A model generated the notes under the pieces. The model did no database searches. It was not told the origin of the DNA and saw nothing but the letters and a program-made list of their open reading frames with translations. Below are positions 44,954 to 64,000 of a stretch of DNA of 64,000 nt, piece by piece. The stretch lies in contig JBJFYX010000106.1 of NCBI GenBank assembly GCA_044892525.1, positions 62,001 to 126,000 on the forward strand. The letters run 5' to 3'. Position numbers and translations under genes: made by a program. Within the stretch, counting starts at the first letter, position 1. Each line of letters begins with the position of its first letter. The DNA is from Schmidtea polychroa. Its lineage: Eukaryota.

Positions 44954-47900
44954 TGTTGGCATATGAGGGAGAAGAAAACTTACACAACCATTATCATACC
45001 GACCGCATTGGTTAGCTCAGACACCTCCCATACATACGCCAAATGATCATTTACATATTCCCACGCATGAGCCCGTGGTGATGTTCCACGTTGGTAGTGC
45101 CCATACGGGTCGGAGCTGACTAACAGGTGAGCCCCTATCTTAGGACTACTGATAGCCCGCTCGCGGTTCAGGTTCACTGGTGCCTTAGAAGGACTTACCC
45201 TTATTCATGCTTCAGTCTTGGTTCGATCCTGGTCCAAGGGAACGACCGTTAGCCTACTCGCTTTCCTTCCACAACACTAAATTATTTATTCTCAAAACCA
45301 AACATATGAAAATCTTTATAAATCGGAACCAAATAGACAAAATATATTAATACCGAATTGAAAATAATAAAAACATCATTACACTTATTAATACAACATC
45401 ATACGGACGGTTAGGATGCACAATATTAACGAAGTCTATCAGTCAATTCACGACTCGAACTACATTCAGGGTCACTCGCGAACTGTTTTAGTTGAAGTTT
45501 TCTCCGTCGGCAATTAACTCGTCGATGTCTACCGGCAATCTACAATCCGAGATAAACTTGATGCCGTTAGCTGGAATGATACGGAAAACTTCTTTCGAGG
45601 GAATCGTATGAGTGGTGGATATCTCTGCTATTGTCGTCTGCGCTGCGAACAAAGAAGCCTCGAGCGCCTTCATTGCATTTCTTCGTTTCTTAGTCTTCTC
45701 GGCCCTAGTTGGGTGGTTGCGTTTGCGTGATGGCGGATTTCCTCCAACAGCAGTAGATACTGTGGGTGCCACTAGGATCGGGGCCAGAATTGGGTCAGAT
45801 GGACCGCCTTTCATAGGTAAGTATCCTGACAGCACTGGGGCTGGGATGGGCGGTAGATGTGAACCATGCCCTCGACAAGCTGTAGTGGGAGTTGTAGATG
45901 GCTGGTGATGGAGAGGAAAGACATTCGATCCATCCAATACGGGATATTCGCGTACCCGCTTTGCTATTTCTGCCTCCGTGTAGACCTTATGGAGGGCTTC
46001 TGATTGTGCTTTTATTGTGAGCCTTTGGCATCGGCTTTCTTCTAGTAGGCTGTCCCTACAATGTTCTAACCGGAGGATCTTAGCTTTTTCCTCCTTCATC
46101 TGTGGCGGGGAGAACCACGTTCCTTCATAAAGATCTATCCTCTTCTTGAGGGCCCCTATATATAAATGAAGTTGAGAGATGTCCGAGTTCTTGTCAGCGC
46201 AAGAGAAACACGGACGAAGCTCTTGGGCGTTATTGGATGGTGTTGTCATCTAGAAAATTAATCATGGTTCAAACCGAATTGCGATACTTATTAAGGTATC
46301 CGGTATAAGAATTCATTAGTTATAATTCTGTAATTTTTCACTAAGTGTCTTAATTCATAAATTTCATGCTTTTTAATATCTCAGCTAAGTTTTCTCTAGT
46401 AATCCGTTTTAACGGTGAAATATATCTAGTTCCAAATTCTACCGAGACACTAAACTCAAAGATTTCACTCATCATACCACGCCACAGCATACAATAAAAC
46501 AACTTGTTTTCACACAATTCAACACTCCTCATTCACTCATTTAGGAAACAACATTCCGATCGATTTATTGATTCAAGATGATGGAGAGAAGAAAACGGGG
46601 GAATCCTCGATTTTAACTTATTCGATGATAAATTTACCTTTATCCTCGGGTCGGATAACTCATACTCATTGCATTTTAGTCGGCTGCTATAGTCGAACAT
46701 ATTTACGCTCGTGATCAATAGAAAGGAATAGCATCCGATTGTTGGGGATTTCCGTTTATTAATTTGTACCTACTTCGTATTGCTAAATCGCATGAGAAAT
46801 TTATCTCTCCTTATGGTGCCTGGTTATTCCGAATTTACGGAAAGGACTTTAAATATATACTATTAGCTAATTATATTATAATTTAAATTTAAAAATTCTT
46901 TTTTAAAAATCGCGCTACTTCTGTCGCCTTAGTGACGCCTACTAGTAGAGGTGTGCATTTTTCTTATATTCATTAACTGAGTCGGTATGCATCGTTGGAG
47001 TAACTCCACCTCGTGCTTTCATGTGTGTCTATTTCTATGTGATGGTGGGGAAAATTCGACGTCGTGTTAAATCGCAGTGGAGACGATCCATGATGGAGTG
47101 TGTAGGTGTGTGCGGTTATATAATATATTGGAATTATCGCTGAGTGTTCTACGAGCATCACCATGGAATAGTGCGTAGTAATCCGATGAGCAACAACTAA
47201 GCTAGAATTTTTAATCTACCTCGATCATTACGCAGCCAGTACAAGACAAGGTCTACCCACGCGTCAATTAGATTATTCCTCGTGGAAATTTATTATCGGT
47301 ATTATCTGATTTCGTTGGTCGTTCAATTCGATCAGTTATCATCTGCCGGCAATTCATTTCTCAAGTCACTGATAACTCCTATCGTGGTTCCTCAATTCAG
47401 TCAGTGAGCAATTGATAAATCTGTCAGCGATTTCTGTCATTTTTCCGTGAGTAATCTGATAACCTCTCCTACTTATTTACATTCTTTTCAGGGAAGATGA
47501 TATTATCAGCGATTCGAAGCTAATCACTTAACTTAAAAATACATTCGTCGACGGGTGTCATCGCTAACATATCGACGGTTCAGATTCTACTAGTATACCG
47601 AGGAAAACCATACTCTACGGGACTTACTGGATTTACACTCCAAGCTTCGTCGACAACATTCTCGTTCACTATCCCGACTGACGGGTTGACCGTTATGAAG
47701 GAATTTCGCCGATCTATGTGGATTCTTAATACGTTGATGAAATTGTCAATCTCAACTCCGAACTGTCCTCGGTTCGCAACTTAAATCTCCTCCGCTATTA
47801 TCAGGTGTATCGATGTGACTTGTTGAAGCTATGGAACTTACTAAGAATGATGCGAGCTCGGTGAAGAAATTTCATCTTTCCGCCTGTTATCCTAACCTAC

Positions 47901-49194
47901 TGAGCCTCTACACCCCTCATAACACACCCAAGAAGGCAATCATCTCTGCCGCCATTCTCGGACGATCATGAGAGACCAGTCGACTCTTTCGCATTCAGCA
48001 ATTTAAAAGCAAATTTCAGATATAAATAATAAAAATGGAACAAATAATAATCAAGTAAATGAATCAAATTACCGGCGACCATATCGTCTGAGTTCCAAGT
48101 ATGATGCTTTCTCATTTTCCAACCCAATATTCCATTACAGTATTGGCATCGTATCCATTATTATCGCTTGCTCCTGATCCAATATCCTCGCAACATTTCT
48201 TGGCTACATATCATAAGACTCCTCGGGGCTACTTCCTCCATTTGGCATCATACTTGAAATCATCAGAAGGTACAGTCGTCGGCACCATGAAGAAAGGCAG
48301 GTTCTGTTTTTAAATAAATTTATTGAACAAATTTTCCTTGTTATTTACAAACTTTAATATCAATTATAAATAATTACTAAATTTCATCATATCTATCATA
48401 AAATTAAACCTAAAAAATATCCTACCATACCTTGAGATTAAATAACTGGGTTAAATCGGTTAAAGATTTCCTGAATAATACCGTTAATAGTTCGCTGTAT
48501 GTTTCTTCCTCAAATCAGATCAGTCTTCTTTGGATTAGTCCTCTGTAGTAGTTTGTGAATAAAATCTTGAAACCTGTAGAGTTGTTGGTTAAAGTGGTCG
48601 TGATAAGTTTTACAATTTTTACCTGTAGAGTTGTTGGTTAAAGTGGTACTCTACTGATTTTTAGCGTTTCTTATATACTATTTTCCGTCCAATCAGGACT
48701 TAGTTAGGTTGTAATTTTTAATATTTATTATTATTTTATGTTTTTATTATAATATATTAGCTTTTAATAACTTAACTTATTTCTTATTATTATTTTATTT
48801 ATTTTTCCTATTTTTCTTATTTTTCTCCTATTTTTTCTGCGGGTTCACTGCTACTTTATCATAATGCAATTTTTGTTTTAATTAAGCTTAAAGATATTTT
48901 TATTTTTTATTTATTGCTTTAATTTCTCGTTTATTTTCTCTTACCTTTTTGCTTATTCTATTTTTACTTTATTTATTGTGCTTTAACTCATTTCTCTTAT
49001 GTCCTATTTCTAATTCTTAAGGGCTTTATTTATTTATCATTTATTCTTATTTCTTTTTTATGGGTATTTTATTGTTTCCTTATTTATTATTGAGGTTTGA
49101 TGGGGATTTATTTTTATTATATTTCGTTTATATTTTTCGCGGCTCGTTTCCCGATTTAACCCAGTTTTTCTCTACTTCAAAACTTAGCCCAACA
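44954..49194 (-). repeat. Candidate 3' LTR, about 4.2 kb (TGTTGG...CCAACA)
   Basis: TGTTGGC at 44954 and GCCCAACA ending at 49194 give a 6-bp terminal inverted repeat. No clear PPT; the second LTR is outside the window. Confidence 0.35.
45488..46249 (-). CDS. Accessory ORF (253 aa): coiled coil, Pro-rich linker, basic NLS-like segment
   Basis: Uninterrupted ORF; ttttctag immediately before the ATG; RKRNHPTRAEKTKKRR; no recognisable domain. Confidence 0.6.
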   Translation of the reverse strand: MTTPSNNAQELRPCFSCADKNSDISQLHLYIGALKKRIDLYEGTWFSPPQMKEEKAKILRLEHCRDSLLEESRCQRLTIKAQSEALHKVYTEAEIAKRVREYPVLDGSNVFPLHHQPSTTPTTACRGHGSHLPPIPAPVLSGYLPMKGGPSDPILAPILVAPTVSTAVGGNPPSRKRNHPTRAEKTKKRRNAMKALEASLFAAQTTIAEISTTHTIPSKEVFRIIPANGIKFISDCRLPVDIDELIADGENFN

Positions 49195-49425
49195 AATCAC
49201 TCCGGGGCCCGTTAAAATTGCGCCCCGCAATTCACATATTATCATCCATTTAAATCATATCTTCTTTCGGCATAACAACTAATTTCACAGTCAACCTTCA
49301 CACAAACATAAAATTAAAATAACTAAATAATACTTTAATTAAACAGATAAAAGGACAAATATAAGCAAGCAGTGGCCACTTTAGGTGACCGGATTTATAC
49401 ACACAAAGTTTATGAATGGTCGATG

Positions 49426-50061
49426 TCACATGATCTTAAGGTTTGGAATGTTATTACTGTCTTGGTTGGTTGAATTCTGGGTCGGATGGCTGGTCGAAGT
49501 TGTTATCGTGGGGAGCTGTATTGTAACAGGTATTTGATCAGGAGATAGATTTTGTTGCATTTGGTCGGGTGGGTTTGGTTGTTGAAAGTGTACTGCTCGT
49601 TTATGCTTATTGTTTGGTCGTGGGTTCTTTCTTTCGGGTTTCTCGGATAGTGACTGGTTTCTTCTCCATGTCCGATAAATATCATACGCTTTCCAGATGA
49701 CTAGTGCGCAGATGATGATGGTTTCACTGATGGTAACATAGAGTAAGACTTGACTTTCTTTTGCTCCCTTCTTCATGATGATTTCCTTCAGGGATTGTTG
49801 GGTGGTTTGTTCTTGTAAGAGAATTTCGAGTTGTTCGATTTTTTGGGTTTGTAGATGGAGTTGCATTTGAAGTTTTTGCCAGACGGCTTTGTTCCAGCAT
49901 TGTTTCGGGATGTTGTTGGAGAGCTTTCTTTCGTTTTTCAGTTTGGTTAACGGGTTTTGCTGTTTCTCGGGATTCTCCCAGAGTGTTGGGATTGGCTGCC
50001 ACATGGGTGTTCCGTTTATCGCTATCATCATTATTGTCACCAGGGTTGCTCCGAACCACAT
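49426..50061 (-). CDS. Accessory type I membrane protein (211 aa)
   Basis: Signal-like MWFGATLVTIMMIAING, heptad Q/L ectodomain, TM VLLYVTISETIIICALVIW, basic stop-transfer segment, P/Q/T-rich tail. Confidence 0.75.
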   Translation of the reverse strand: MWFGATLVTIMMIAINGTPMWQPIPTLWENPEKQQNPLTKLKNERKLSNNIPKQCWNKAVWQKLQMQLHLQTQKIEQLEILLQEQTTQQSLKEIIMKKGAKESQVLLYVTISETIIICALVIWKAYDIYRTWRRNQSLSEKPERKNPRPNNKHKRAVHFQQPNPPDQMQQNLSPDQIPVTIQLPTITTSTSHPTQNSTNQDSNNIPNLKIM

Positions 50062-50116
50062 ACTACTATACGAAAATTTTTATTTACAATTATTTACATT
50101 GATCATTCATCTTTAA

Positions 50117-50818
50117 TTATTGCCGGGTTTTCTTTTTACGGGTTTTCTCGGATGTTCTCATCACTCTCGTTTCTGCTTTTATTACTCGTTTTCTCAATTC
50201 GGGTAGTACTTTTAATTGTTTGTCTCTTTCGTCTAACTGTTGCTTTAGGGTTATTATTTTTTCCTTTAGTGCTTTTATTTCTTGTGTTGCTCTTTCGAGG
50301 TTTTTATGGTTCATTATCTGTAGAAAATCATTTTCCCTTTCCCCGTCTTCTTCGTTGTCTATTTCTTGGTATTTGTTGTTCATTCTTTTCATTATTTCAC
50401 ATTCCTTTTGTTTCTGGTGTAGTTGGAGTTGTAACTCTTTCAGGCTTTCTTGGTGTTTCCGTGCCTCGGTTTTCCAATAATCACTAATCACTTCGTCGGC
50501 CTTTCTACTGGCCCTTTCCTGCCATAATTCTTCCGCGATCTTTTCCCAATTTCTCCCTCGCTTCCTTTGCTCGTGAAGCCATTCGTTTTCTTCCTCTACT
50601 TCTTTCTTTACTTCTTCTAACAGGGTGTATTCTCTTTTCAATACTTTAATCATTTTTCGATTATCTCTCCACCTTTCTACTAATCTTTCGTTTTCCTGTC
50701 TCTCCTCTTGTAATTCTTCCTTGATAGTTTTCTTCCTCTCCACTTCCTCAACTTCAATTTCTCCCTCTTCTAACTCGATTATAGATGTTATGATGGGTTG
50801 TCCGTTTTCAGTGTTCAT
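50117..50818 (-). CDS. Accessory coiled-coil protein (233 aa)
   Basis: Intact E/K/R-rich helical ORF. Confidence 0.75.
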   Translation of the reverse strand: MNTENGQPIITSIIELEEGEIEVEEVERKKTIKEELQEERQENERLVERWRDNRKMIKVLKREYTLLEEVKKEVEEENEWLHEQRKRGRNWEKIAEELWQERASRKADEVISDYWKTEARKHQESLKELQLQLHQKQKECEIMKRMNNKYQEIDNEEDGERENDFLQIMNHKNLERATQEIKALKEKIITLKQQLDERDKQLKVLPELRKRVIKAETRVMRTSEKTRKKKTRQ

Positions 50819-50991
50819 TTTCTATAATATATACATAATTAATAATTGCGCTACAGTGCGGCTTATACTTATACATTTATATGTTATTTTATAATCAGGG
50901 TTACAGTCCCTTTCATACTTTTACTGTACCATTAATTTTTTTGTTGGGATACAGGTCCCGATTTTTATATTTTTTATCTTTCCTTTCGTCT

Positions 50992-52029
50992 TTATACAAA
51001 GGTTTCTTCCTGGCCTACATATCCTTCATCGCTTTCTACTGACGTTTGTAATTGGAGTGCGATGGGATCAAATGGGATGTAGTACCGGGGAATCTGCGCT
51101 CTAAGTTCTTGGACTTCGTCTCTTAGCGCTCTTGACACGTTGAGTTCCTCGTCCAACAGGTAGGTTAAATACCTAGTTTCGTCATCCCGTACTTCTATCT
51201 GTTTTTCTAACTCTTCCGCCTTTTCGCCGTTCTCCCATTTTTTGATCTCCTTTTCGAGGTTCTTGATATTTTCATCATACATCTTCCTCTCGTTTTCTAA
51301 TTTCTTATTCTTACCGGCTAGCACTATGTTTCGTTGTTCTAGTGCCCCTTTGTAGCCGTTATTATCTCTCTCGAGGTCTGTCACCTTATTTACGAGTTCG
51401 ACGATTCTACCTGACTGTTGCAGGATCATCTCTTCCATGGCGGTATTCTCCTGTTCCTTTATAGACAGTTTCATGGCTAGATGCCTTTCAAATTCCATGG
51501 CCTTGGTCTGCCAGGTTTGACTTCGTGTTGCTATTTTCCTGAGCCTTCTTAGCTCTTCTCTCTGATCAAGGTTTTCCTCCCATTTCCCCTGCTCGGTTTC
51601 GTATTCTAATTTCTGAGGTAATTCCCTTATCTCCTTTTTAATTTCCCGATGTTGTCTTTTCCACTTTCTGGCTTCTGCCAAGAGTTGACGAGATTTCCTT
51701 TCCTCCTTTTGTTTTTCTATCTCTCGTTTTTTATTCTCGTCTGTCAGTCTTTTTCTCGATTCTTGTACTAGTTGCTTGAGGTAGTGACCGTGAGCTTCTT
51801 GTCGCGTATTTTCTAATGCTGCCCACTTGGCGGCTCTTTTACATGCCTCCGCCTCTGCTCGTAAGTTTTGCACCAACCACTGAAATTGGTGGTTTTCCCA
51901 TTCTCTTGCTTCTTCGAGGTAATTTCGTGTCTTATTTGATAATTGTGCCATTACTTTGGCCCATCTTTTTCGGTGTACTCCATTGATTTTTATTTCGTTG
52001 TTTGGGGCTTCTGTTTGTTCTTGTGTCAT
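50992..52029 (-). CDS. Accessory coiled-coil protein (345 aa)
   Basis: Intact E/K/R-rich helical ORF. Confidence 0.78.
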   Translation of the reverse strand: MTQEQTEAPNNEIKINGVHRKRWAKVMAQLSNKTRNYLEEAREWENHQFQWLVQNLRAEAEACKRAAKWAALENTRQEAHGHYLKQLVQESRKRLTDENKKREIEKQKEERKSRQLLAEARKWKRQHREIKKEIRELPQKLEYETEQGKWEENLDQREELRRLRKIATRSQTWQTKAMEFERHLAMKLSIKEQENTAMEEMILQQSGRIVELVNKVTDLERDNNGYKGALEQRNIVLAGKNKKLENERKMYDENIKNLEKEIKKWENGEKAEELEKQIEVRDDETRYLTYLLDEELNVSRALRDEVQELRAQIPRYYIPFDPIALQLQTSVESDEGYVGQEETFV

Positions 52030-52248: not shown

Positions 52249-53637
52249 CTATTCAGTCCTACTCTTCCCATCTCGCCTCACCGCTATTTTTATGTATATA
52301 GTGTCGTTTCTCGTCATATCCTCCACTTTCCGCTGTAGGATAAAATTCGGTGCTCCGGTTGCTGGTCCTTCTTCTTCCAATGGCCTTTGATAACATACAA
52401 GGTTTCCTGCTGTATGGAAACTCTGCTCATGTGTACTTAGATAGTTCATCATTGCGAGGTCTATTTTTGCTTTGAACGGCCATTCTATTAACTCATCGTA
52501 TGGCCCTTTGCATATCAAGAAGAATATTGAGAAATGTGTTCCGTGCGCGCTTCCGTCCCCGTTGGGATATGCTTTCATTTTCATCTTATATCCGTTTTTC
52601 CATGAGTAGAAGGCTGGACTTAGTAATGTCGTGTCCTTTCCATTTCTCGCTCTCTGCATTTTCTCCTTTACTTCCGTTATTTTCCATATGTATGGAGCCG
52701 TTGGTATCAATTCATTGAGGTTCATTTCGCTTACTTTTTGATGTAGTTCTTTCACCATTTTGTTGCTAGTTTCTACTAGATCTGTTTGTATCTTTGTACT
52801 TAGTCTTGCCTCTTCGAATGCTTCTTTCTCTTGCAATAATTCTTTTACCAACGTTTTCAGCGAGGTTATTTCCTTTTCTAGGTTTTCGGTTTTCTTTTCG
52901 TTTTCTTGTAGTACCGTTGACCATATTTCTGCGTGTGTTGATACGTTCTCTGCTAGATGTTGGGGTAGTTCTCCTCGGTGTAATTGTTTCTGACATCCCC
53001 ATTTTCCTAACACACACATTATCTTTTTCCTTTCGCATTCTTTCAGATGTTGAGCGAGTTTTATTACTCCGGGTTTATCGCATTTGTTGGGACATTCTCC
53101 TCTGAATTCTGCGCACACTTTTTCCTCTTGTACGTTATGATGTTGACTCGTTAGTTTTCTCCAGGTGTCGGTTTCTCCGCAATATTCGCATCTTTCTAGC
53201 CTTTCCTTGCACCGACTTTGATGTTCTGTTTCTTCACTGGCTTTAATCTCTTCTTGGCAACGTTCGCAGTGACTGACTTTATGCTCACACTTCTCCATGT
53301 GTTGCCTCACCTCCCATATCACTCCTCGCCAATTGCATGGGGTGTTTTTACATCCTAGATTTGTATTCAACATATCTTTTACAGCTGCTTTATCTTCGTT
53401 TGTATCTCCCAAATTTGTTATCATTGTTTCTTTACATACTGGGCACCATTGTGGTCCCTTCTTTATTATTTCTTCTACACATTCTTTACACATTCTACAT
53501 CCGCATCTGGTTTGGTGAGGTTCTCTTAATAATCCCTTGCATATTCCACACTTCACATGGTCATGTATTCGAATTGTGGTGGATTTTCTGACTTGTTCGA
53601 CAATCTCCTTGAATTCTTCTCTTTGTCGCTTATCCAT
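52249..53637 (-). CDS. Full-length intronless TRAF-family protein (RING, TRAF zinc fingers, coiled coil, MATH)
   Basis: CGICKGLLREPHQTRCGCRMCKECV...CPVC RING; zinc fingers such as CPNKC...HLKEC; MATH motifs YIWKI, SPAFY, GYKMKMKAYPNGDG, GTHFSIFF, LIEWPF, DTIYIKI. Confidence 0.95.
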   Translation of the reverse strand: MDKRQREEFKEIVEQVRKSTTIRIHDHVKCGICKGLLREPHQTRCGCRMCKECVEEIIKKGPQWCPVCKETMITNLGDTNEDKAAVKDMLNTNLGCKNTPCNWRGVIWEVRQHMEKCEHKVSHCERCQEEIKASEETEHQSRCKERLERCEYCGETDTWRKLTSQHHNVQEEKVCAEFRGECPNKCDKPGVIKLAQHLKECERKKIMCVLGKWGCQKQLHRGELPQHLAENVSTHAEIWSTVLQENEKKTENLEKEITSLKTLVKELLQEKEAFEEARLSTKIQTDLVETSNKMVKELHQKVSEMNLNELIPTAPYIWKITEVKEKMQRARNGKDTTLLSPAFYSWKNGYKMKMKAYPNGDGSAHGTHFSIFFLICKGPYDELIEWPFKAKIDLAMMNYLSTHEQSFHTAGNLVCYQRPLEEEGPATGAPNFILQRKVEDMTRNDTIYIKIAVRRDGKSRTE

Positions 53638-53722: not shown

Positions 53723-54082
53723 TTATTGACTGGAAGAGTCGGCCTCTTGTCCGCCCTCTTCCCTACTGGTTAACCATTCTGACCAGTCTTCTATCTCCTC
53801 TCTTTCCATTTCTTCAGCGATTCTCATTAATTCTTCTTCCTGTCCCTGGCTGTATCGCGATATTCGCACTATTTCCTGCTGCATTTGTTCTATCTTTATT
53901 CGCTGATCTTCGATTATTCTCACATAACTGAAACCTTTATTTAGACTTTCGACTAAGCTTCTTTGTGCAGCGAGTCCTTGTTCCTGTAAATTCGAAATCA
54001 CTTGGGTTAACATTGCACATTGCTGTTTCCACATCTCTTCGGTTGTCGTACTGTGGTTTACTTCATCGTTTATTCGCTCCAT
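53723..54082 (-). CDS. Accessory small coiled-coil protein (119 aa) with acidic Trp-containing tail
   Basis: Intact ORF with heptad pattern; EIEDWSEWL tail. Confidence 0.65.
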   Translation of the reverse strand: MERINDEVNHSTTTEEMWKQQCAMLTQVISNLQEQGLAAQRSLVESLNKGFSYVRIIEDQRIKIEQMQQEIVRISRYSQGQEEELMRIAEEMEREEIEDWSEWLTSREEGGQEADSSSQ

Positions 54083-54249: not shown

Positions 54250-55680
54250 CTATATTTGTGAGTTTGGAGGACGCTGAGCGTTCCAGGCCTCCACCCACTG
54301 TTCCTGTTTGATATTACTTGGTCTCTTTACCTGATGTTGAAAGTTTCTGATTCTGGCCATCTCCAGTTCTCCGCGATGCCGTCTATCTTTGATTATTTTT
54401 ATGGTTCCCCCCATTATGATTAAAAATGCCCCTGCTATTATTATGCCGCTGATCCACATCATCTGTTTCACGCTTATGATTTCCGCTTTTTCCTTGTTCG
54501 TTATTGTTGGTATTGCCTCTGTGCTTTTTAGATTATCATCTTTGTCATTTCCTTTTATCATTCCTCGTATTCTTGCTATTTCTTCGTTCATGCCTTCCTT
54601 TGCCATTTTTTGTATTTTCTCCATCTCTTCTTCTGACACGTAATTATCTTGATATTTCTCACTGGTTTTCTTGCGTTTTCCTTGCTCATCCTTTTCATCA
54701 TTGATTTTTCTTTTCTTCCCTCTTTTCCCAGGGTATCGTCGACATTCTCTCGCTGTATCGTTTCTCCAGATGCATACTGTGTATTCTTTTGGAGGTTGTT
54801 GCTGTGTTACATATTGTAGACAGTCTTCACCCGGTCCTAATCTTGAAATGCAGACTTTGTGTTCTTTTCTTGGCTGGAGTTGCGTTATCACTACCTCACC
54901 TCCTTTTTTCAGGTGTACCTCCTTCCCTTTGACTTTAGTTATTCTCTTCCCGTCTCGATTCCGGTATGCTTCTTGTATTCTTACTTCCGTTATCGGTTCT
55001 GTATCTTCATTTATTAATACTAGTCTCCGATATGCTCTCGACATACATCTTCCTAGTATGCACCTTTCTTTTAGATCCCATTCTTCTTTTAAATCCCATT
55101 GTTGCTCTCGTACTTGCTTCTTCTTTTCTTGCTTTAGTTCCTCCTCCTTGTTATCTTTGTTTTCCGTTTCCTTGGCTTCTTTTATCGTTCTCATTCCTCC
55201 GTGAGCTGTTATCATTTCTACCATTGTTAGTATGAGTATCATTACCATCATATTTGTCTCCATTTCCTTGTTGGTAAAAAGTAGGCATACCCTCTGTTTT
55301 CCATTATTCGTCTTTTCCTCTTCCTTTGTTCGGTTTCCCGGGTTATTTTCCTCTTTTCTCATACTCGCGTCGTTATTTTCTTGCTTATTCTCCTCTGATT
55401 TCTCTTTCCCGTTTTGACCTGTTTCGTCATTATCGTCGTCTTTATAGTCTTTATCTCCCCCGCTGTCGTTTGAAATGTCGTCCTCGACATTTATGTCGTT
55501 CAATAATCTGCGATATGCTGTTAACACTCTATTTCTTGCTAATTTCGCTTCGAATTCGAACTCCTTTCTGCCTGTTGCTGCATGTCTCTTTCTGTTCCAT
55601 TCTTTTACTAATTCTCTTAATTGTATTCGACGATTTTTCCGATTCGCTTTTGTTCGTTTTGATTTTGCGTGAATTTGAGG
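54250..55680 (-). CDS. C-terminal segment of the polyprotein: acidic linker, internal signal peptide, FN3-like ectodomain, TM, short tail
   Basis: Frame is open from about 55740 and joins the ankyrin frame by a 1-nt shift near 55672. MMVMILILTMVEMITA signal; VVITQLQPRKEHKVCIS FN3-like strands; MMWISGIIIAGAFLIIMGGTI TM. Confidence 0.72.
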   Translation of the reverse strand, partial: PQIHAKSKRTKANRKNRRIQLRELVKEWNRKRHAATGRKEFEFEAKLARNRVLTAYRRLLNDINVEDDISNDSGGDKDYKDDDNDETGQNGKEKSEENKQENNDASMRKEENNPGNRTKEEEKTNNGKQRVCLLFTNKEMETNMMVMILILTMVEMITAHGGMRTIKEAKETENKDNKEEELKQEKKKQVREQQWDLKEEWDLKERCILGRCMSRAYRRLVLINEDTEPITEVRIQEAYRNRDGKRITKVKGKEVHLKKGGEVVITQLQPRKEHKVCISRLGPGEDCLQYVTQQQPPKEYTVCIWRNDTARECRRYPGKRGKKRKINDEKDEQGKRKKTSEKYQDNYVSEEEMEKIQKMAKEGMNEEIARIRGMIKGNDKDDNLKSTEAIPTITNKEKAEIISVKQMMWISGIIIAGAFLIIMGGTIKIIKDRRHRGELEMARIRNFQHQVKRPSNIKQEQWVEAWNAQRPPNSQI

Positions 55681-58600
55681 TCTTCTCTGTTCAATACGAT
55701 CATTATGATTTTCGGAGTTCCTCCTTTTGTCAGCGTATTTTTAACCATGGCATTTTCCCCGTTTTCATAGAACTCATTTATGTTTATTGCATATGTATTA
55801 CTTTGTGGTATTTTCCAGGTTAACAATAACTTCATGGCTTCTAAGCTCTTCCGTATCGTGTTCCATTGGAATTGTGACGTGTTTTTGCAGATATTTTCTA
55901 CCTCAGTTCTTGTAGCATTTTTACAAATGAATCTAATCCTTTCCAGGTTTGGTTGTATTGTTGCCCAATCCATGGTAGAATTTCCCTCGTTTGATTTCTC
56001 GTCAAGTCTCTAACCTGATTGATGTAGTATGTGTAAGGTTTTCGGGTGTATATTTGTTATTGCTGCATACATCATTGCTGTTTCTCCTTGTTCATTTTTT
56101 GCATTAGATTCTTCTCCGAAGTCTCTAAGAATTCTTATGATGGTTATTGCTCTGTTTTCTTTTGCTGCTAATATTGCTTGTTGTAATGGTGTTCTTGAAT
56201 CTTTCGTCGGTAAGGTGAATGCTAGTGGTATGAATGTTTTCATTTTTCCTATGTCTAGATTTGTGGTCTGATCTCTTGCGTAGGTGTGTACTGTTTTTGT
56301 TATTTTTGCTAGTATCGCCTCATCGGATAGATCTTGCATTTCTTCAAAGAATACTTCTTTAGCCTTACGTACTACTATCTCTTGGTCGGAGTTTATTGTC
56401 TTTGGTTTACTTGTTGTTGCTATATCGGTTATTATTTGATCGGTTTGTTTCTCAGACTCTCTTGCTGTTATTTTCTTGATTTTTATCCTTTTCTTGTTCG
56501 AACTGTTAATGCGTTCTTCCGCTGTAAGCACTTGAATAATACTTAGGTAGTTTTCTCGGATGTTGTTCATAGTTTCCATCATATATAATACGTTCACAGT
56601 TTCCCAATATTTTACTTGTACTTTATCGGTAAATTGAGATATGGCTTTTTCGAAGTTTGTAATTCGTTTTCTGATTAGTTGTTCGTCTTTGTGATTTGAA
56701 AACTTTATGCCACGTTGTAGTAGTTGATTTGGAATTTCGAATAGGTGATGTCCTCTCATCGCTTCTCTCATCAAGGTGTTTTCTCCTTTGGTAAATGTTT
56801 CGTTTATATCTACCATATAATCGTTTTTGATCGGGTTCCTCCATGCAATTAGTAATCCAGTAATTGTTATTAATTTCTCTTTGATCGCCGTTAATAGCCC
56901 GTCATACATGTTTCCTATCTCCCTATTATCCTCGTACGATAATAGATCTACTAAGATTATGAAGGCTTCCGTACTTTTCCCTTCGATTGCATGATGTAGT
57001 GCATTTTTCCGGTTGTGATCTTGTGTGGTTATCTTTGACCCAGTTTCAAGTAATGCGATAATAATATCTTTAGCTTTATCCCGATTGGCTGCTATCATTA
57101 GTGGGGTGTAACCTTGGTTATTTTCTTGATCCGTTGAAACGTTACAATCGCGAAATGCTTCAATTGTCTCTAGTATTTGTTCATTATTACCAACCTTTAA
57201 AAGTTTGTGTAGTGGTGTATCTCCGTAATGGTCTGTGATCGTGAATAATATGGGCCATTGACTTTTAACTACCCTGAGCAATGGGTGTGTTCTTTCTCGG
57301 TTTGCATAGTTTTCTATCATGGTTAGCAGACCTCCCAATATCTCAAAATCCAATTTATCTTTAGCCCATCCGGGTATTTTAGCTTTTACTTCTTTTATGA
57401 TTTTCTCGGCTTCTGATGGTTGTAGCCCCGATCGATTACCCGTTGGTTTGTTTATCTGCTGTAACATATTGATTCTATACGTTTGTGATCTGGTTGTTAA
57501 TGTTCGCCCTTCTGGCTGATTGGTGGCGGTTTTCGGAATTGGCTTACATCGTGCAACATTTACGTATATTGGTCTTGTAAAAGGGTTGTTCACTAATCGT
57601 ACTCTTACATTAGTTTCTCCGACAAATAAAATCTCATACGGCCCTTTACCGTTTCGTTGTAATTTTTTGGTGGTTCCTGGAATTAATTCTGGTGTTTCGA
57701 TCATCACCCAATCGCCTGTTTGAAACGTATGCTGTTTGACGTTTTTCTTTCTATCATGTAAATCTTTGTAACTTTCTTGATAAAATTTTATATTCAATCC
57801 TGCAGTTTCCCAGATTTCCTGCATTCTTTCCTTGAACTTGGTTACATAATCGTCTATTTCCATGTATTGTGATATTGGTGGCTGATATTCTAAGTCCATT
57901 GGCATATTACATTCTCTACCATACATCAATTTGAATGGACTCATCTTTGTGGACGCGTGAATCGACATTCTGTAAGCCATTAAACATAATTTTATATACT
58001 CGTCCCAGTCGCGTTGATGACGATCGACATAATTTGATAACATTTGAATCAAGGTTCCGTTGAATCTTTCTGTCATACCATTTGTTTGTGGGTGGTACGG
58101 TGATGTTCTTAATTTTGCAATCTTGAAGTAATTGGTTACTTCGCTCATTATTTCACTCATGAAATTTGTTCTCTGATCAGTTAATATCTGTTTTGGTGTT
58201 CCATATCGACAGCATATCTCCTCTACCAGTATTTTCGCGATTGTTTTTGCTTTCTGGTCTGCCATAGCGAATGCTTCAGGGAATTTTGTCAAATAATCTG
58301 TGATTACCAATATATATATATTTCCTCTATCGGATTCTGGTAGTGGACCGACTACGTCCATAGATATCATTGTCATTGGTTCTGCCGGTACTGGCATTGG
58401 CTTTAACGGTGCTTTCCATTTCGTTCCCGTGTTTTTTCTGGTCGCGCAAGTTATACAGTTCTTTACCCATTCCGTTACATCCTCAATCAATGTAGGCCAA
58501 AAATACTTTTGTTTCATTCGGGCTAACGTCTTCTTCGATGACATATGTCCTCCGAGTCTTCCGTCATGATATTGCGTTAGCAAATCTTTACGTCTATTTT

Positions 58601-58790
58601 CTGGAATGCACATCAGTCTCTTTTCCCCATCCATTATCAATAACCAATCTTTCTCGATAATATATCGATGTCGATGTTTATCCATGTGTTCTTTCAGTTT
58701 TTGATCTTTCTCGTATACCTCTGCTTTTCCAGTTTTTACATATTCGATAATTTGTTTCAACTCGGCATCATCTTGCTGGTCTTTTCGTAA
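55617..58790 (-). pseudogene. Integrase fused to ankyrin repeats; in frame with pol across TAA 58791-58793, with an internal TAG at 56010-56012
   Basis: HHCC (YHDGRLGGH...CITC), SMDVVGP, LTDQ, GMTERFN, GPY. Ankyrin motifs GDTPLH, GYTPLMIAA, KNALHHA, RTPLQQA, GETAMMYAA, G*RLDEKSNEGNSTMDWA. Confidence 0.92.
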
Positions 58791-61700
58791 TTAGCAAAAA
58801 TCTAAATCTTCCGCTACCATTAGACATATCCGTTGCATTTCATGATCTACTAAATCTGGAAAGATAAACCTTGACATACAATCCGCATTGGCATTCGCTC
58901 TTCCTGCTTTGAATTTTATGAACGGTGAATATTCTTGCAACTGCATTGCCCATCGCATCAATCTACTTGAAGCTTCTTTGTGCTGTCCGAGCCATACTAA
59001 TGGTTGGTGATCTGTTGTGATACATATTTCGTGTCCCCATAACAAATATCGAAAATGTTTTATCGCTTGTATTATAGCTAACGCTTCTCTTTCTGTTACT
59101 GAATAGTTTTTCTCATGCTTTTTAAACGTTCTGCTGTAATAGCCGATTACTCTCTCCTTTCCTTCTTCATCGAGTTGTCCTAATATTGCTCCGGCTGCAT
59201 ATCCACTTGCATCGGTTGCTAACAAGAACGGTTTCTTGAAATCAGGATGTACTAGTATTGGGGCTTCAATTAATTTATCTCGCAATGTTTCAAAGGCTTT
59301 TTGCTGTTCTGCTCCCCAGATAAATGAAATGTCTTTTTTCACTAATTCCTGGATTGGTTTCGCAATACTTGCATAATTTTTAATGAATTTCCGATAATAT
59401 CCGCATAATCCGAGGAATTCTTGAACTTGGGTGACAGTTTTCGGTGCTGGACAGGTTTTTATTTTTTCTATATTTCTTGGATCTGGTTCTTTGCCTTTTG
59501 CTGACACTATGTGTCCTAAGAACGTAACTTTTTCTTTTGCCCAATCACATTTGGATGGTTTAAGCTTCAATTTCCATTGTCGTAATCGGATGAACACGTT
59601 TCTAATGTCTTCCAAATGTTGTTCGAAAGTTGCTGAATATATTAATAAATCATCAATATATACCATACATTGCTTGATCCCGTGTGTGACGAAATTCATG
59701 CATCTCTGAAATGATGCTGGGGCATTGGTCAGTCCAAATGGCATTTTCCTGAATTGATATAGATCTCGGCCCAATGTGAATGCTGTTTTCTCTTTGTCTT
59801 CCTCCTTGACTTTGATCTGCCAATATCCGCTCTTTAGATCTAAAGACGTAAAATATGCGGCCCCCTGTAGCATAAGTAACATCTCATTGATGTCTGGTAA
59901 TGGGTATGTGTCTCTTTTTGTTACTGCATTTAATTTCCGATAATCGATACAGAATCTCTGAGTACCGTCTTTTTTCTTTACCATGACTACTGGAAATTGC
60001 CATGGCGAACAACTTGGTTCGATCACTTGTGCATCTAGCATTTTTTGTACTTCTGCTTCGGCTATCTCTTTTTGCTTCTCTGCTAGTTTGTATGGTCGTA
60101 ACGCAATTGGAGTTTCGTCTATTAATGGTATTGCGTGTAATGTGACATCGCATGCTCCCAAATCTAAATCCGAAATTGCGAATATATCTTTATATTCTAT
60201 TAGTAATTGTTGAAGTCTTTCCTTTTCTCTTTCCGTTAGCAAGGTGCTATCAATTATCCATAATTCGTCAGCTTTCGTTGTTTCGTTGGTGATTTTTGGT
60301 AATTCAATGTCTATCATGGGTGTCAATCTACCCAATCTTTCATTTTCATATATGATCTTGTCTTCCTCCTCGAAATTTGTGATGTTAATTGGTATTTCCC
60401 CTTCTTCATTTATTGTTATTATTTCTCTTGCTAATGGTAATTCTCGTCGTTTTTCGAATGATTTGCTTGGCTCGAAAATGGCTTCTCCTTCCATTCCTGC
60501 ATCCACTTTTATTTGACATATCATCTGTGATTTTGCTGGCACAATTATTTTCTCCGGACATCTAATTATTGCGTTCATCTTGCATATTCTACCCATTTTA
60601 TCTTTTAGACACATTGTTGTTAAATCGATTACTACTTCCTTGAACAATTCCGGCATTAAATCCGTTCCGATTATACATGGTTCGCTCAGTTTGGGTATCA
60701 CCGCTAGATACGTTTCAATTTCATTATCTTGATATCGTAACGTAGTCCACCATCTTCCTACTACGTCTACGGTTTCTTTACTGCATGCAATAATATGGAT
60801 AGTTGTTTGTTCGATATCTTTCCAACATTTAGTGGGTATTTGGTTTATTGCTATTGCTGATACGTTTGCTCCGGTATCTATCATTGCGCTTGTCTCTTTC
60901 CCATTGATTTGGATCATGACTGTTACTGCCGCGCCTCCTGGTGAACTCATTACTGCTATTGTTCTGACGTCATCAGCTTGGTCTACGCTTTTCGTTCTTC
61001 GGATTGGCATATAGTTCATTCCTGGTTGACTTGGTAACTGTGGATACATATTTTGTGTCATGGTCAAAGCTGTTTGTTGTCCAACGATATCTGGTGGTAT
61101 ATAACTTCCGTTGGCTATCCAGGTATTTGTTTTTTCTTTCTCCCAATATGGCGCTGTTTCTATTGGCTTTTCATTCGGGTTTCTACTTGGGTATGGATAT
61201 TTGTCATTCCCATTGTCGTCATCATCACTATCGCTGCTGTTTGATCGATTTCTAAATCTGTCTAAGAATTTTGGTTTGTTCTTCTTTAATTGCGCTCTCG
61301 TTGCTTCATCATACATCGTTTTCCGAAATCGTCTGCCAACTTCCTCGTCAGTCCCTTTTATTTTTGTCAGTATTTTGATTAATCGTTTTATTCTGTGTAT
61401 GTCTTTGGAATGACCGTGCAACACCATTGTTTTTGCCAAAAATGGTAGAAAACCTACTATCAATTTCCAATTCACTTTCTTTTCTCGCTTGTATATATCG
61501 AAGCATGCCAACATTTGGGTCAATATTACCCTGACGATCTGAATAATTAAGATGATTCCCAATATTCCTGCCATCATTTGACCGAACACTAGAAATCTTC
61601 CCCACATTGCTTTCATCATGTTTGACGTGGCTTGTTGAAAATGATCCGGTGATAATAATAGTTCATAGTTGGGACTTGATTGGAAATTCGTTCCCCCAGT

Positions 61701-62789
61701 TATGGTAACCATATTTGATAAAATGGATTCCCGTCTTGCTGGGAATAATACGTTTAATCGTGCCGTTTCTAAATCCTCTGGTGAGTACATACCGGCCTTT
61801 GACACATCAATTGGTTTGAAATCCTGTTCTGTTGCAAGCTCTATTAATCCAAACTTTTTAGGTTCTTGCACTTCAACTTTTAACGGTAACATTATCCATT
61901 TCCCATCGGGTTTTTCATATAATGGCCCGTATGCATTTGAACAGTTAAAGGTGTTCGGATAAAATCCAATTGGGTTCATAATTCTGGTGACGGGTTGAAC
62001 GAATCTGTTCCGCCCTTTGTAACTAATTTCTAATTCGTTTGCACATTTCCCTGGTGGAATTGTGGGTTTTCTTGGCAGTCGTGCAAATGTCTTGGTACAT
62101 GCATATGTATACATTACCTCTCCCACCATTCTACCAAAATGTCCATCCGGTAACGGGAGTGATGTCATTGTGTTATCTGGGTGTGTTATTGCGATGGCTA
62201 ATTTTGTTTTTAGTATTTCTTTATTCAATGAACAGTCATTTTGTATAAGATCGTAATATACTTTTTGCATTGTCGTTTGTCCTCGATGGAATAGGAAGTC
62301 CATCTTGTTATTGGCATACAAGTACAATTTTACGTCTTCCGTTGCTACCTTTTCCACTGCTCTGTCTATTACTTGCCTTGACATGTAGATACCTGCGTAG
62401 TTCGTCCGGTATACTATACTGTCACATTTGGTAGTCTCTTTTTCTCTGATGAATTTCATACCGATATCTGGATCATCTGTAATTAATGCCGTTGGTGTTT
62501 TTTGTGTTGTGAGTCTCTTTTCTTTGGGGGATGGTGGGACTGGTTTCCCATTTCGCATCCTTACGTTTCCATTCTCTTCGTCGTCATCTTCGTTTTCATA
62601 AATTTCTCCTTTTACTTCATTGAACAAAGCACTTTTTAACAACTGGAGTCGGCATTTTTGGGTGTTGGCTTCATATATTATAGTCGAAATTCCCGTTCTA
62701 CACACGTTTTCCGTAGCTCTGCATGCTGGGTTGGTTTTCATTTGATAATTATTTGCGTCGAATTGCGCTTCGTATTCCTTCAAATCCAC
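58791..62789 (-). CDS. Polyprotein segment: glycoprotein C-half and TM, aspartic protease, RT, RNase H
   Basis: TM WGRFLVFGQMMAGILGIILIIQIV (about 61500-61605); MIDTGANVSAI (about 60875); FCIDYRKLN, MPFGLTNAP, YIDD (about 59655); LATDAS, EREAL, TDHQPL, NADCMS. Confidence 0.95.
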   Translation of the reverse strand: MDLKEYEAQFDANNYQMKTNPACRATENVCRTGISTIIYEANTQKCRLQLLKSALFNEVKGEIYENEDDDEENGNVRMRNGKPVPPSPKEKRLTTQKTPTALITDDPDIGMKFIREKETTKCDSIVYRTNYAGIYMSRQVIDRAVEKVATEDVKLYLYANNKMDFLFHRGQTTMQKVYYDLIQNDCSLNKEILKTKLAIAITHPDNTMTSLPLPDGHFGRMVGEVMYTYACTKTFARLPRKPTIPPGKCANELEISYKGRNRFVQPVTRIMNPIGFYPNTFNCSNAYGPLYEKPDGKWIMLPLKVEVQEPKKFGLIELATEQDFKPIDVSKAGMYSPEDLETARLNVLFPARRESILSNMVTITGGTNFQSSPNYELLLSPDHFQQATSNMMKAMWGRFLVFGQMMAGILGIILIIQIVRVILTQMLACFDIYKREKKVNWKLIVGFLPFLAKTMVLHGHSKDIHRIKRLIKILTKIKGTDEEVGRRFRKTMYDEATRAQLKKNKPKFLDRFRNRSNSSDSDDDDNGNDKYPYPSRNPNEKPIETAPYWEKEKTNTWIANGSYIPPDIVGQQTALTMTQNMYPQLPSQPGMNYMPIRRTKSVDQADDVRTIAVMSSPGGAAVTVMIQINGKETSAMIDTGANVSAIAINQIPTKCWKDIEQTTIHIIACSKETVDVVGRWWTTLRYQDNEIETYLAVIPKLSEPCIIGTDLMPELFKEVVIDLTTMCLKDKMGRICKMNAIIRCPEKIIVPAKSQMICQIKVDAGMEGEAIFEPSKSFEKRRELPLAREIITINEEGEIPINITNFEEEDKIIYENERLGRLTPMIDIELPKITNETTKADELWIIDSTLLTEREKERLQQLLIEYKDIFAISDLDLGACDVTLHAIPLIDETPIALRPYKLAEKQKEIAEAEVQKMLDAQVIEPSCSPWQFPVVMVKKKDGTQRFCIDYRKLNAVTKRDTYPLPDINEMLLMLQGAAYFTSLDLKSGYWQIKVKEEDKEKTAFTLGRDLYQFRKMPFGLTNAPASFQRCMNFVTHGIKQCMVYIDDLLIYSATFEQHLEDIRNVFIRLRQWKLKLKPSKCDWAKEKVTFLGHIVSAKGKEPDPRNIEKIKTCPAPKTVTQVQEFLGLCGYYRKFIKNYASIAKPIQELVKKDISFIWGAEQQKAFETLRDKLIEAPILVHPDFKKPFLLATDASGYAAGAILGQLDEEGKERVIGYYSRTFKKHEKNYSVTEREALAIIQAIKHFRYLLWGHEICITTDHQPLVWLGQHKEASSRLMRWAMQLQEYSPFIKFKAGRANANADCMSRFIFPDLVDHEMQRICLMVAEDLDFC

Positions 62790-64000
62790 TGGATATTACC
62801 TCCCCTCTGATCGTATATGTGCCTCCGTTACAGGATCCATCGGTCGATTTTACCCGTCCGGCTACATAGATGCTTTCGGTCTTAATCATCCCGCTTTGTC
62901 CGTGTATTGTTACTCCATCCCGGATTCTCATTGCTCCGGTTCTAAAAAGCTCTTTGCAGTCTTCCCGTTGTATAGGTACTATTTCTTTATCTAATCCGGG
63001 TAGTATGAGAGTTGAATAAGAATATTGTCCACAATAATATGCCAACACTTTCTTTGATACTACGCATTCTCTAGCTTGTGTTCGAATAAAATCTGATTCT
63101 TGATATACGTGATAGGAGACTTTCTTCTTTACTATATCTAATTTATTCGGAGATGCTTGTCTGCATTCCTCTATATCTCTCAGGGAGTATTTTTCTCTTA
63201 ATACCGAATTGTCACAGTCGTAGATTGTAAATCCAGCTGCTCCGCTGGTACAGAGCATCCATATCATCATGGTCATCATTAGTGAATTAATCGACGCTTT
63301 TCTGCTGGCTGGGTCCTTTAATGGCAATTCCCATTCTAGCTCGTTTAATAATTTTTTCAACCGAATTTGCATTGATCTCTCTTGCTCGTTTTTCCGTGGT
63401 GCTTGTATGAGTCTTTTCCATCCACCGGCGCGGATAATATGTGGTTCGATTGTAGTTTCAATGATTGTAACTGTCATTTCTACATGATTTGCGAATTGTT
63501 TGTTAGGTATTTTTCTTGCTGCTAATCCCATCAAATTGTACATTAGATACGTTAACACTACTAAATGATGTTCGTCGTCGTTTGCGTTTAAAGTTAATTG
63601 TTCAATTACTCTTCTTGTCTCTTCCCAATCGGTTTTAGTGGTTTTTGTCTTCTCTTTGATTAATTTCGGAATTATTCCGGATATTGTATTCCATAGCTGT
63701 CTGGCATCTACGCTTGCTACTTTTCGTTGCCATAACCGTCTCAATTGCGGGTTCGTTATTATTAACATATCCTTTACTAGCTCTCGTATCCATTTTTCAC
63801 CTCTCTCGATTGTTGGTTGGGCTTCTTTTAGGTCCCATACTATTTTATCCAGTTTCTCTAATCTGACTTGTCCTTGTTCTTGTTTTAGTTGTTCTCTAGT
63901 TTTAAATTCTGGTTTTTCTCCTTGTTTCTTGGGTCTTCCTTTTGCCCGTTTCTCCATCATTGTTCCAGCTTCTCTTGTCTTTTCGTAATTCGGGTTTCTC
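62749..64000 (-). CDS. Polyprotein segment: Bcl-2-like domain, internal signal peptide, N-half of a gB/chuvirus-like glycoprotein. Open past the window edge; shifts into the 58791-62789 frame near 62790
   Basis: Frame is open to 63999 (RNPNYEKTREAGT-MMEK). HIIRAGGWKRL is BH2-like. LMMTMMIWMLCTSGAAG/FTIYDCD signal and cleavage site; Cys pattern YYCG...DGSCNGGTY. Confidence 0.85.
   Translation of the reverse strand, partial: RNPNYEKTREAGTMMEKRAKGRPKKQGEKPEFKTREQLKQEQGQVRLEKLDKIVWDLKEAQPTIERGEKWIRELVKDMLIITNPQLRRLWQRKVASVDARQLWNTISGIIPKLIKEKTKTTKTDWEETRRVIEQLTLNANDDEHHLVVLTYLMYNLMGLAARKIPNKQFANHVEMTVTIIETTIEPHIIRAGGWKRLIQAPRKNEQERSMQIRLKKLLNELEWELPLKDPASRKASINSLMMTMMIWMLCTSGAAGFTIYDCDNSVLREKYSLRDIEECRQASPNKLDIVKKKVSYHVYQESDFIRTQARECVVSKKVLAYYCGQYSYSTLILPGLDKEIVPIQREDCKELFRTGAMRIRDGVTIHGQSGMIKTESIYVAGRVKSTDGSCNGGTYTIRGEVISSGFEGIRSAIRRK

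Follow-up and report, generated by a model that had tools for sequence, protein, structure and literature searches.

Does the DNA at this locus hold a retrotransposon that lies by chance beside host genes, or a single mobile element that carries these genes as its own parts? In the window, by which we mean the whole 64,000-nucleotide stretch analyzed, positions 44954..64000 contain more than 19 kb of parts, which the preliminary description had placed on one strand of a giant Gypsy element. All of these parts are indeed on the minus strand. They make up the 3'-terminal 19 kb of a Ty3/Gypsy element that measures 30,652 bp, and position 44954 is exactly the end of its 3' LTR. We conclude that this is very probably an envelope-bearing Ty3/Gypsy retrotransposon of 30.6 kb that exists in many copies, is most likely a sister family of the planarian Burro1/GYPSM1 element and likely keeps captured host genes as replication aids.

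As expected for Ty3/Gypsy, the element is bounded by two matching LTRs of the TG...CA type and flanked by a target-site duplication, and the order PR-RT-RH-IN is confirmed by Pfam. The 3' LTR (44954..49194, minus strand; 4,241 bp, TGTTGG...CCAACA) differs from the 5' LTR at four positions. The 5' LTR lies outside the window, at 133365-137605 of contig C106, and extension past 64000 also recovered gag, the primer site and the second target-site repeat. The 4-bp duplication (ATAC on the element strand; 44950..44953, unstranded) recurs beyond the 5' LTR, and 4-bp duplications also flank all seven other copies inspected and a sister-family copy. The primer site is a 20-nt match to the host tRNA-Pro, the gene for which was found in a tandem array; the first six loci with the primer-site pattern have no tRNA gene. 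There is no purine run directly at the 3' LTR junction; a conserved hairpin with a GGGCCCC box occupies the expected place of the polypurine tract instead (49195..49240, minus strand; located in nine of the ten copies and two of the three sister-family stretches that were searched). The polyprotein runs out of the window at 63850..64000 (minus strand), and the ubiquitin-like region, Gag, an upstream RING ORF, the primer site and the 5' LTR lie on C106 126001-137605. The total length is 30.4-30.8 kb in all seven family copies measured.

The window copy is very young yet broken. It has five in-frame stops and two frameshifts and is therefore not autonomous; it was likely mobilized in trans by other copies. 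Programmed read-through as the cause of the stops was ruled out, since none of ten other copies has any of them. At least 100 internal copies of the family exist: exact tags place RT at 101, TRAF at 126 and the LTR at 645 places, with none for reversed-pattern controls. The order from gag to ORF D is common to all ten fetched copies (nine independent insertions), which were chosen as the best RT matches and so favor young elements. LTR pairs are 99.1-100% identical in nine of the ten, in two of them over only 0.4-0.5 kb; in the remaining copy no LTR pair was found. With non-independent pairs pooled, dN/dS is 0.013-0.30 in frame for the family genes and 0.8 or more off frame, and 0.54-1.1 for two non-coding stretches. 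All cargo genes are under purifying selection (dN/dS 0.03-0.30). Because this codon-level constraint holds across dispersed copies, the cargo genes are functional parts of the element, not passengers.

The relationship to Burro, suggested in the preliminary description, is supported by the LTRs, the duplication, the length, the layout and a sister family. An AT-rich genome with four large contigs and the likeness of env to S. mediterranea elements would fit a planarian (Dugesiidae/Geoplanidae) host. Giant Burro elements were described in Schmidtea mediterranea (Jurka 2007, Grohme 2018, via PMC6431247). Burro1/GYPSM1 has an env that is in frame with gag and pol and lies between them; MATH_TRAF_C, BCL2-like, BIR, SUMO-like and ankyrin motifs are described as well (PMC6431247). 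The Burro-group traits present in the window family are a length of >30 kb, multi-kb LTRs, an in-frame env flanked by gag and pol, and MATH/TRAF, RING and ankyrin cargo. Further likenesses to Burro1/GYPSM1 are the giant ORF, a Gag with three CCHC knuckles, the ubiquitin/SUMO-like region, a putative BCL2-like region, env before PR-RT-RH-IN and the accessory ORFs. The sister family in the same genome has an RT 89% identical and the Burro1 layout, with a MATH domain inside a 4,791-codon frame (E 7e-30) and a BIR-RING ORF (IAP, E 9e-16). The sister-family layout matches the description of the 4,873-aa GYPSM1 (PMC6431247). In the RT-RH tree, the window family and the sister family fall together with 100% support. 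In contrast to Burro1/GYPSM1, where MATH_TRAF_C sits in ORF1 between Gag and the SUMO-like region, the window family has neither a MATH domain in the polyprotein (no MATH_TRAF_C match in four pieces of it) nor a BIR-RING IAP ORF (no BIR match in any ORF scanned), and its TRAF is only standalone and downstream. In a Dugesia tigrina element, a standalone MATH ORF is placed upstream (PMC6431247). Burro membership is most likely, judging by the layout and by the sister family. The preliminary description knew of no account that combines env before pol, TRAF and an integrase-ankyrin fusion; novelty is not supported, for PMC6431247 already reports these motifs. The architecture, with Bcl-2, TRAF/MATH and ankyrins around env-before-pol, is of an already known kind and, having been in print since 2007-2019, is of low surprise.

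In the family, a single frame some 4,700 codons long encodes Gag, a ubiquitin-like region, a Bcl-2-like region, Env, PR, RT, RH, IN, ankyrins and a membrane protein. Gag has an extension of 109 codons that contains no AUG and is under constraint (dN/dS 0.30). The frame is continuous across the env junction in 10/10 other copies and interrupted in the window copy. Pfam supports the fusion glycoprotein, PR-RT-RH-IN, the ankyrins and the full TRAF of the preliminary description. The class III (gB/chuvirus-type) fusion glycoprotein (61542..63285, minus strand) matches PF24664 at E 2e-46 and 1e-21. It has a predicted signal-like internal segment near 63231-63285, a predicted TM near 61542-61598 and 14 cysteines across its two pieces, and in the window copy it is broken by a frameshift near 62749-62795. 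The protease, PR-RT spacer, RT and RNase H (58791..60920, minus strand; Pfam E 1e-8 for protease, 1.5e-36 for RT and 1.6e-39 for RNase H; RT dN/dS 0.013) have an in-frame stop at 58791-58793 in the window contig. The integrase follows (58035..58607, minus strand; H2C2 and rve core, Pfam 1.3e-20 and 7.8e-13), and fused behind it is the ankyrin-repeat region (55617..57350, minus strand; Pfam 1.1e-16, dN/dS 0.086), with an in-frame stop at 56010-56012 in the window copy.

Two domains proposed earlier are weaker points. The Bcl-2-like helical domain (63370..63849, minus strand), just upstream of the env signal, is constrained as tightly as env (dN/dS 0.032), and three related proteins have Bcl-2 matches at E 8e-5 to 2e-3 immediately before env. 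The aligned regions have a common P...GGW motif (alignment A3), which we take to be BH2-like. The NWGR-type motif is that of BH1, and none is visible in the alignment. In the window family the Pfam match is below the cut-off (E 0.024), and the fold is only predicted, by a low-confidence model (pLDDT 52). A wide structure search with this model gave generic helical bundles (best Z 10.1), with no Bcl-2 entry among the 50 matches listed; the PDB profile search placed Bcl-xL at E 1.9, and the leads of an Atlas search were 0.82 at most. As for the "FN3-like membrane protein" (ORF A; 54250..55740, minus strand), it does have a hydrophobic leader, a beta-rich ectodomain (all-beta model, pLDDT 65) and a TM near 54409-54465, with dN/dS 0.15. 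FN3 itself has no Pfam support, nothing below E 0.6 in the PDB profile search and no usable Atlas match. ORF A is the polyprotein C-terminus; in 10/10 other copies no stop separates it from the ankyrin end and both are in the same frame, which rules out a standalone accessory gene, and is split off only in the window copy, by a frameshift near 55617-55740.

We suggest that the polyprotein would be threaded through the ER membrane and cut by signal peptidase and the element protease. Through the env signal segment, Gag/Bcl-2 may be anchored at the membrane, and Pol may hang on the env tail; Gag, Env and Pol would then be made in roughly equal amounts. The family may be infectious. That it is at present an enveloped flatworm virus spreading between cells or animals, whose genomic copies are proviruses, is possible but less likely than not. 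The provirus idea was already put forward in PMC6431247. Constraint on env comes close to that on integrase (dN/dS 0.033-0.05 versus 0.022), env has the signal-like segment, cysteines and TM helix described above, and the LTR pairs of nine copies are nearly identical. However, purifying selection on env fits cell-to-cell spread inside one animal too, and env is broken in the window copy.

Downstream of the polyprotein, all on the minus strand, the five further ORFs of the preliminary description were confirmed. These are ORF B (53723..54082; 119 aa, dN/dS 0.091) and the coiled-coil-like ORF D (50992..52029; 345 aa, dN/dS 0.066), both with sister-family homologues; the charged, coiled-coil-like ORF E (50117..50818; 233 aa, dN/dS 0.17); ORF F (49426..50061; 211 aa, one predicted transmembrane helix, dN/dS 0.30 in five copies), which is missing or partial in some copies; and an LTR-encoded ORF with a basic tail (45488..46249; 253 aa, dN/dS 0.093 in frame and 1.4/2.9 off frame). 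The LTR ORF matches no Pfam entry and no known family; its homologue search returned 0 of 586 candidates, which says nothing on novelty.

How might these genes be expressed? We favor a model in which the seven small ORFs are probably translated from cis-spliced subgenomic RNAs, a short LTR leader being joined to an acceptor before each AUG. A candidate 5' splice donor, GG|GTAAG, lies some 245 nt upstream of the LTR end (45190..45198, minus strand). It is conserved in all eight other family LTR ends recovered, seven of which are only 65-72% identical there. Against its use, the pattern GT[AG]AG occurs in just 1 of the 11 other LTR ends with the same primer site. An acceptor-like YAG stands 0-6 nt before the AUG in six of seven accessory ORFs, whereas the share among 461 sense ATGs is 19% (p 3e-4); the enrichment falls to p 0.02 against AT-rich ATGs only (40% of 15). 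Contigs of presumed-RNA runs span the element, and none of the 13 joints listed is at a predicted acceptor, which is neutral either way. Alternatively, the accessory genes could be an operon resolved by spliced-leader trans-splicing, which we consider unlikely. The spacers between them are 56-220 nt long and AT-rich, and each closes with an acceptor-like motif; flatworm operon spacing peaks near 100 bp in Macrostomum according to PMC8629364, and the Gag extension is AUG-less and constrained. On the other hand, the LTR donor is conserved across diverged LTR subfamilies, and internal cleavage of that style would presumably cut the genomic RNA. Our literature search listed no paper that treats the splicing of accessory genes in elements of this kind; this does not establish absence from print, and the figures and supplements of Grohme 2018 and Lee 2026 may already describe this layout and splicing.

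The most recognizable cargo is an intronless, full-length TRAF of 462 aa with RING, zinc fingers, coiled coil and MATH (52249..53637, minus strand; dN/dS 0.109). RING plus MATH reach Pfam E 1.1e-25, and the best PDB matches are TRAF3 (E 2e-30) and TRAF2 (9e-29). The TRAF is found in 10/10 copies and shares 33% identity with the standalone TRAF of the sister family. A homologue search at an E cut of 1e-30 returned 0 of 1,663 candidates, which says nothing on novelty. As to the host donor, the three groups of element MATH sequences sit on long branches of the tree, with support of only 87/56 where they join. The TRAF2/3-like E3 ligase, the RING protein and the Bcl-2-like domain would likely dampen death and innate signaling in the expressing cell, and the cargo may in this sense be the "NF-kB toolkit" proposed earlier. 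We think that the captured host genes are likely kept because they help the element to replicate in host cells. It is rather doubtful that they are kept chiefly for the benefit of the host. Such mutualism has a precedent in the anti-apoptotic Burro1 B-IAP, which protects stem cells (Lee et al. 2026, as reported in passages of PMC13465017). Against it, the window family has no BIR, and constraint between dispersed young copies would mirror selection during replication.

The accessory ORFs have no introns, occur in many copies and keep their linkage to RT, and chance juxtaposition or misassembly can be dismissed: although contig C106 duplicates a C1 locus, with differences at a few places, the Bcl-2-like region, env, pol, ankyrins and TRAF have an identical order in 10/10 other copies, an exact TRAF tag lies 6.2-6.8 kb downstream of 49 of the 60 exact RT tags on C1 and C2 (chance about 1e-4 per tag), and everything lies within matched LTRs with a target-site duplication.

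Other systems share parts of this design. In complex retroviruses such as foamy viruses and lentiviruses, accessory genes likewise follow splice acceptors and an ORF extends into the LTR. The window family differs from them in its RT lineage, the class III env before pol, the single polyprotein and the captured host TRAF. Twelve of 107 metagenome matches are Gag-Env-Pol polyproteins of 2,700-4,100 aa with env before pol (P0007, P0009, P0011-P0015, P0017-P0019, P0021, P0022). They are a sister clade in the RT-RH tree (99), and P0012 has ankyrin and ubiquitin-like domains, but their RT is only 55-59% identical to that of the window family and their cargo differs (an Ig domain, additional proteases). 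For Schmidtea mediterranea, PMC13524379 lists six gB-type elements, and it gives GAG-ENV-POL as the order in Platyhelminthes; its main text has neither "ankyrin" nor "Burro". Two of these, Smed_errantivirus_5 and _6, have the gene order and env class of the window element but a different sequence; the supplement rows give no LTR or PBS for the six. Over 58 env residues from window position 62795, compared by eye, the window element matches _5 at 37/58 and _6 at 30/58, whereas the sister family matches _6 at 47/58.

Taken to its limit, the sequence allows a speculative reading that we consider improbable as a whole. Burro-type elements could be still-infectious, complex flatworm retroviruses of a "third kind", in which a membrane-threaded Gag-Bcl2-Env-Pol-ankyrin-membrane polyprotein would build the particle and one LTR leader would be spliced to seven accessory genes, including a TRAF2/3-like ubiquitin ligase (>120 copies) that would rewire innate and death signaling in stem cells. 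If this were true, element-borne TRAFs would inflate the reported planarian TRAF "expansion", and the BIR-less family would be a natural control for the Burro1 IAP mutualism. The two sister families share the standalone TRAF and differ in the BIR-RING IAP, the one cargo gene with a reported host benefit, so each role could be tested by RNAi. At least 67 of the 150 scored MATH matches have sister-family frame lengths (by eye; four checked). Since element-borne copies make up such a share, they need to be removed from planarian MATH/TRAF counts.

It is well supported that the minus-strand Ty3/Gypsy element whose 3' part occupies window 44954-64000 is real; elements of its kind are already known. 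The preliminary description knew of no account combining env before pol, TRAF and an integrase-ankyrin fusion. However, Burro1/GYPSM1 had been reported as an element of more than 30 kb with an ORF1 of 4,873 aa, an in-frame env placed after gag and ahead of pol, and RING, Smc-like, MATH_TRAF_C, BIR, ankyrin, BCL2-like and SUMO-like motifs (PMC6431247). Our copies (the focal family) have neither the in-polyprotein MATH nor the BIR and thus are not Burro1 itself. When the genome was searched for MATH, a second giant family came up, the sister family, which does fit Burro1: it is about 35 kb long, with a 4,791-codon frame, a MATH between Gag and a ubiquitin-like region, and a BIR-RING IAP ORF. GAG-ENV-POL elements with a gB-type env are described from Nematoda, Bryozoa and Platyhelminthes in one account (PMC13524379), and over a 58-residue stretch of its Smed_errantivirus_5 we count by eye 37/58 residues matching the focal env. 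The value of the present data lies in the selection estimates, the splice signals and the comparison of a BIR-less family with Burro1.

The strand has a strong purine skew and a GC content above the flank, and all ORFs first listed for it are present. Pfam bears out the fusion glycoprotein (class III), protease, RT, RNase H, integrase, ankyrins and a RING-to-MATH TRAF, whose nearest solved structures are TRAF3 and TRAF2. Extension past window position 64000, proposed earlier as a check, recovers the missing parts on contig JBJFYX010000106.1: a Gag with three zinc knuckles (128877-130415), an upstream RING ORF without BIR (132427-132903), a primer site with a 20-nt pairing to host tRNA-Pro (133338-133357) and the 5' LTR (133365-137605). 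A ubiquitin-like region outside the window matches weakly (E 0.065). The element totals 30,652 bp, with target-site duplication (TSD) ATAC and LTRs of 4,241 bp each that differ at 4 positions and end in TGTTGG...CCAACA. The 3' LTR junction has no purine tract; in place of the canonical polypurine tract stand a hairpin and GGGCCCC box (window 49195-49240), kept in both families. Upstream of the first Gag AUG, an open frame of 109 codons without AUG (5088-5415 of L001, a stretch beyond the window end) is kept in 9/9 copies with dN/dS 0.30; a comparable frame of 103 codons occurs in the sister family. Gag may therefore start at a spliced AUG or at a non-AUG codon. A tandem array of tRNA-Pro(TGG) with a 475-bp period begins at 130,901,009 of another contig, C1, where 5/5 units within the scanned 2 kb are called as tRNAs; the tRNA-Pro/primer-site pattern has 1,658 matches genome-wide, part of them primer sites.

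Of 737 candidates found with an 801-bp probe from RT, 40 were scored, at 94-100%; ten of these were fetched, plus a C1 duplicate of the focal locus. Two of the ten, at 6.9 and 7.18 Mb of C1, have identical flanks and TSD and are therefore one duplicated insertion. The order gag, middle region, Bcl-2-like, env, pol, ankyrin, ORF A, ORF B, TRAF, ORF D is common to all ten, although one lacks half of env and pol. The RING ORF occurs in nine, ORF E is full in six and partial in four, and ORF F is full in five, partial in one and absent from four. Exact 20-mers number at least 101 for RT, 126 for TRAF and 645 for the LTR genome-wide. On C1 and a further contig, C2, 49 of 60 RT tags are accompanied by a TRAF tag at the spacing expected; 35 of 84 TRAF tags have no exact RT partner. 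This common order and tag pairing rule out chance juxtaposition or misassembly, which the preliminary description had named among the things that would refute its reading. The LTRs form subfamilies: in nine of the ten copies the LTR is only about 72% identical to the focal one (window 44954-49194), whereas identity in most internal genes is 88-100%. This contrast suggests that LTRs turn over fast or are swapped. At C1 72.65-72.70 Mb, two tandem elements have one LTR in common (three LTR tags, 26.4 kb spacing). One contig of sequencing run X1, presumed RNA, fuses the end of ORF B to the start of ORF F (window 50099-53733), bypassing TRAF, ORF D and ORF E; this joint, whose short side has just 22 letters, is perhaps a TRAF-less variant family.

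The focal copy has five in-frame stops, found at those places in 0/10 other copies, and two frameshifts (near window 62749-62795 and 55617-55740), the flanking frames of which agree in 10/10. Because they agree across 55617-55740, ORF A, first taken for an independent "FN3-like membrane protein", forms the C-terminal end of the polyprotein, an arrangement that the sister family shows too; from coordinates the frame has about 4,700 codons. Neither Pfam nor a profile search of PDB supports the FN3 label, and the domain is all-beta in a predicted model. For the Bcl-2-like domain, its own score is only E 0.024; a library-wide search found Bcl-2 matches (E 8e-5 to 2e-3) at the same place, before env, in 3 of 13 related proteins scanned. 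Since so many breaks lie beside LTRs only 0.09% apart, we suggest that the focal copy is a defective template copied in trans. Window 35382-64000 is duplicated, flanks included, at 99.9% on C1 near 168.37-168.41 Mb (L005-L008). The two versions have four of the five stops in common; the RH-IN stop, the env frameshift and a place near 61041-61067 distinguish them. These differences, two breaks among them, may be haplotype or assembly differences.

Pooled pairwise dN/dS values over nine independent copies, descriptive because the pairs are non-independent, are 0.013 for RT, 0.032 for Bcl-2-like, 0.066 for ORF D, 0.086 for ankyrin, 0.091 for ORF B, 0.093 for the LTR ORF, 0.109 for TRAF and 0.153 for ORF A. 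With fewer copies they are 0.166 for ORF E (8), 0.173 for RING (8) and 0.30 for ORF F (5); env gives 0.033-0.05 in all ten copies. Off-frame controls are at least 0.8 and two non-coding stretches 0.54-1.1. The low in-frame values indicate that the cargo is translated and maintained.

TAG or CAG lies within 6 nt before the AUG in 6/7 small ORFs (AAG in the seventh), and these contexts are kept between copies. As background, such acceptor-like motifs precede 19% of all 461 sense ATGs (p 3e-4); among the 15 AT-rich ATGs the share is 40% (p 0.02). In the sister family the signal precedes RING, the ORF B-like and ORF D-like frames, TRAF, IAP and one LTR ORF; it is missing at one downstream ORF, and two ORFs have it in just one of two copies read. 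A candidate donor, GG|GTAAG, some 250 nt upstream of the LTR end is found in 8/8 focal-family LTR ends and in just 1/11 other LTR ends with the same primer site. Judged from sequence, the small ORFs are likely expressed by splicing, in cis or in trans; flatworm operons are covered in PMC8629364.

A quick RT-RH tree was built with 38 rows (of 107 hits, 36 were chosen and one was lost to short coverage). The focal and sister families, 89% identical in RT, group with support 100; the sister group of the pair (99) consists of 12 unnamed polyproteins from metagenomes, in which env precedes pol. The standalone TRAFs of the two families are 33% identical. The MATH tree gives no resolution on the origin of the element TRAF; in it the host MATH-domain exon clusters (C2, about 110-124 Mb and 1-6 Mb; L055-L078) form their own clade (100/99), apart from the element TRAFs. 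The genome holds element-borne TRAFs and true host MATH clusters alike. A planarian expansion of MATH domains, 121 in number, is reported in PMC6109357. Several intronless-looking TRAF frames of 454-473 codons lie elsewhere on C2 and on contig C4 (L049-L052, L054).

The structure, copy number, linkage and constraint of the element are established. From hydrophobic segments and general retrovirus biology, we propose that the polyprotein would be threaded through the membrane, where signal peptidase and the protease of the element would cleave it. The env signal would remain as an anchor for Gag/Bcl-2, and the C-terminus would become a second surface protein. Accessory mRNAs would be spliced, and the TRAF, RING and Bcl-2-like products could keep the expressing cell alive and innate signalling low. 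Burro1's IAP protects stem cells according to Lee et al. 2026, as cited in PMC13465017, and PMC8532177 places BURRO1 and BURRO4 under PIWI control.

At the insertion site lies a host gene for a ubiquitin C-terminal hydrolase (window 40253-44746, plus strand). The element follows the last exon of this gene by about 200 bp and runs opposite to it, and two of the gene's exons are separated by a DDE_3 transposase remnant (40831-41458, minus strand). Just past the 5' LTR is a hAT transposase frame of 781 codons (3810-6152, plus strand, of the adjoining stretch L002); beyond it a long satellite, very rich in AT, extends from L002 8800 to L003 10000.
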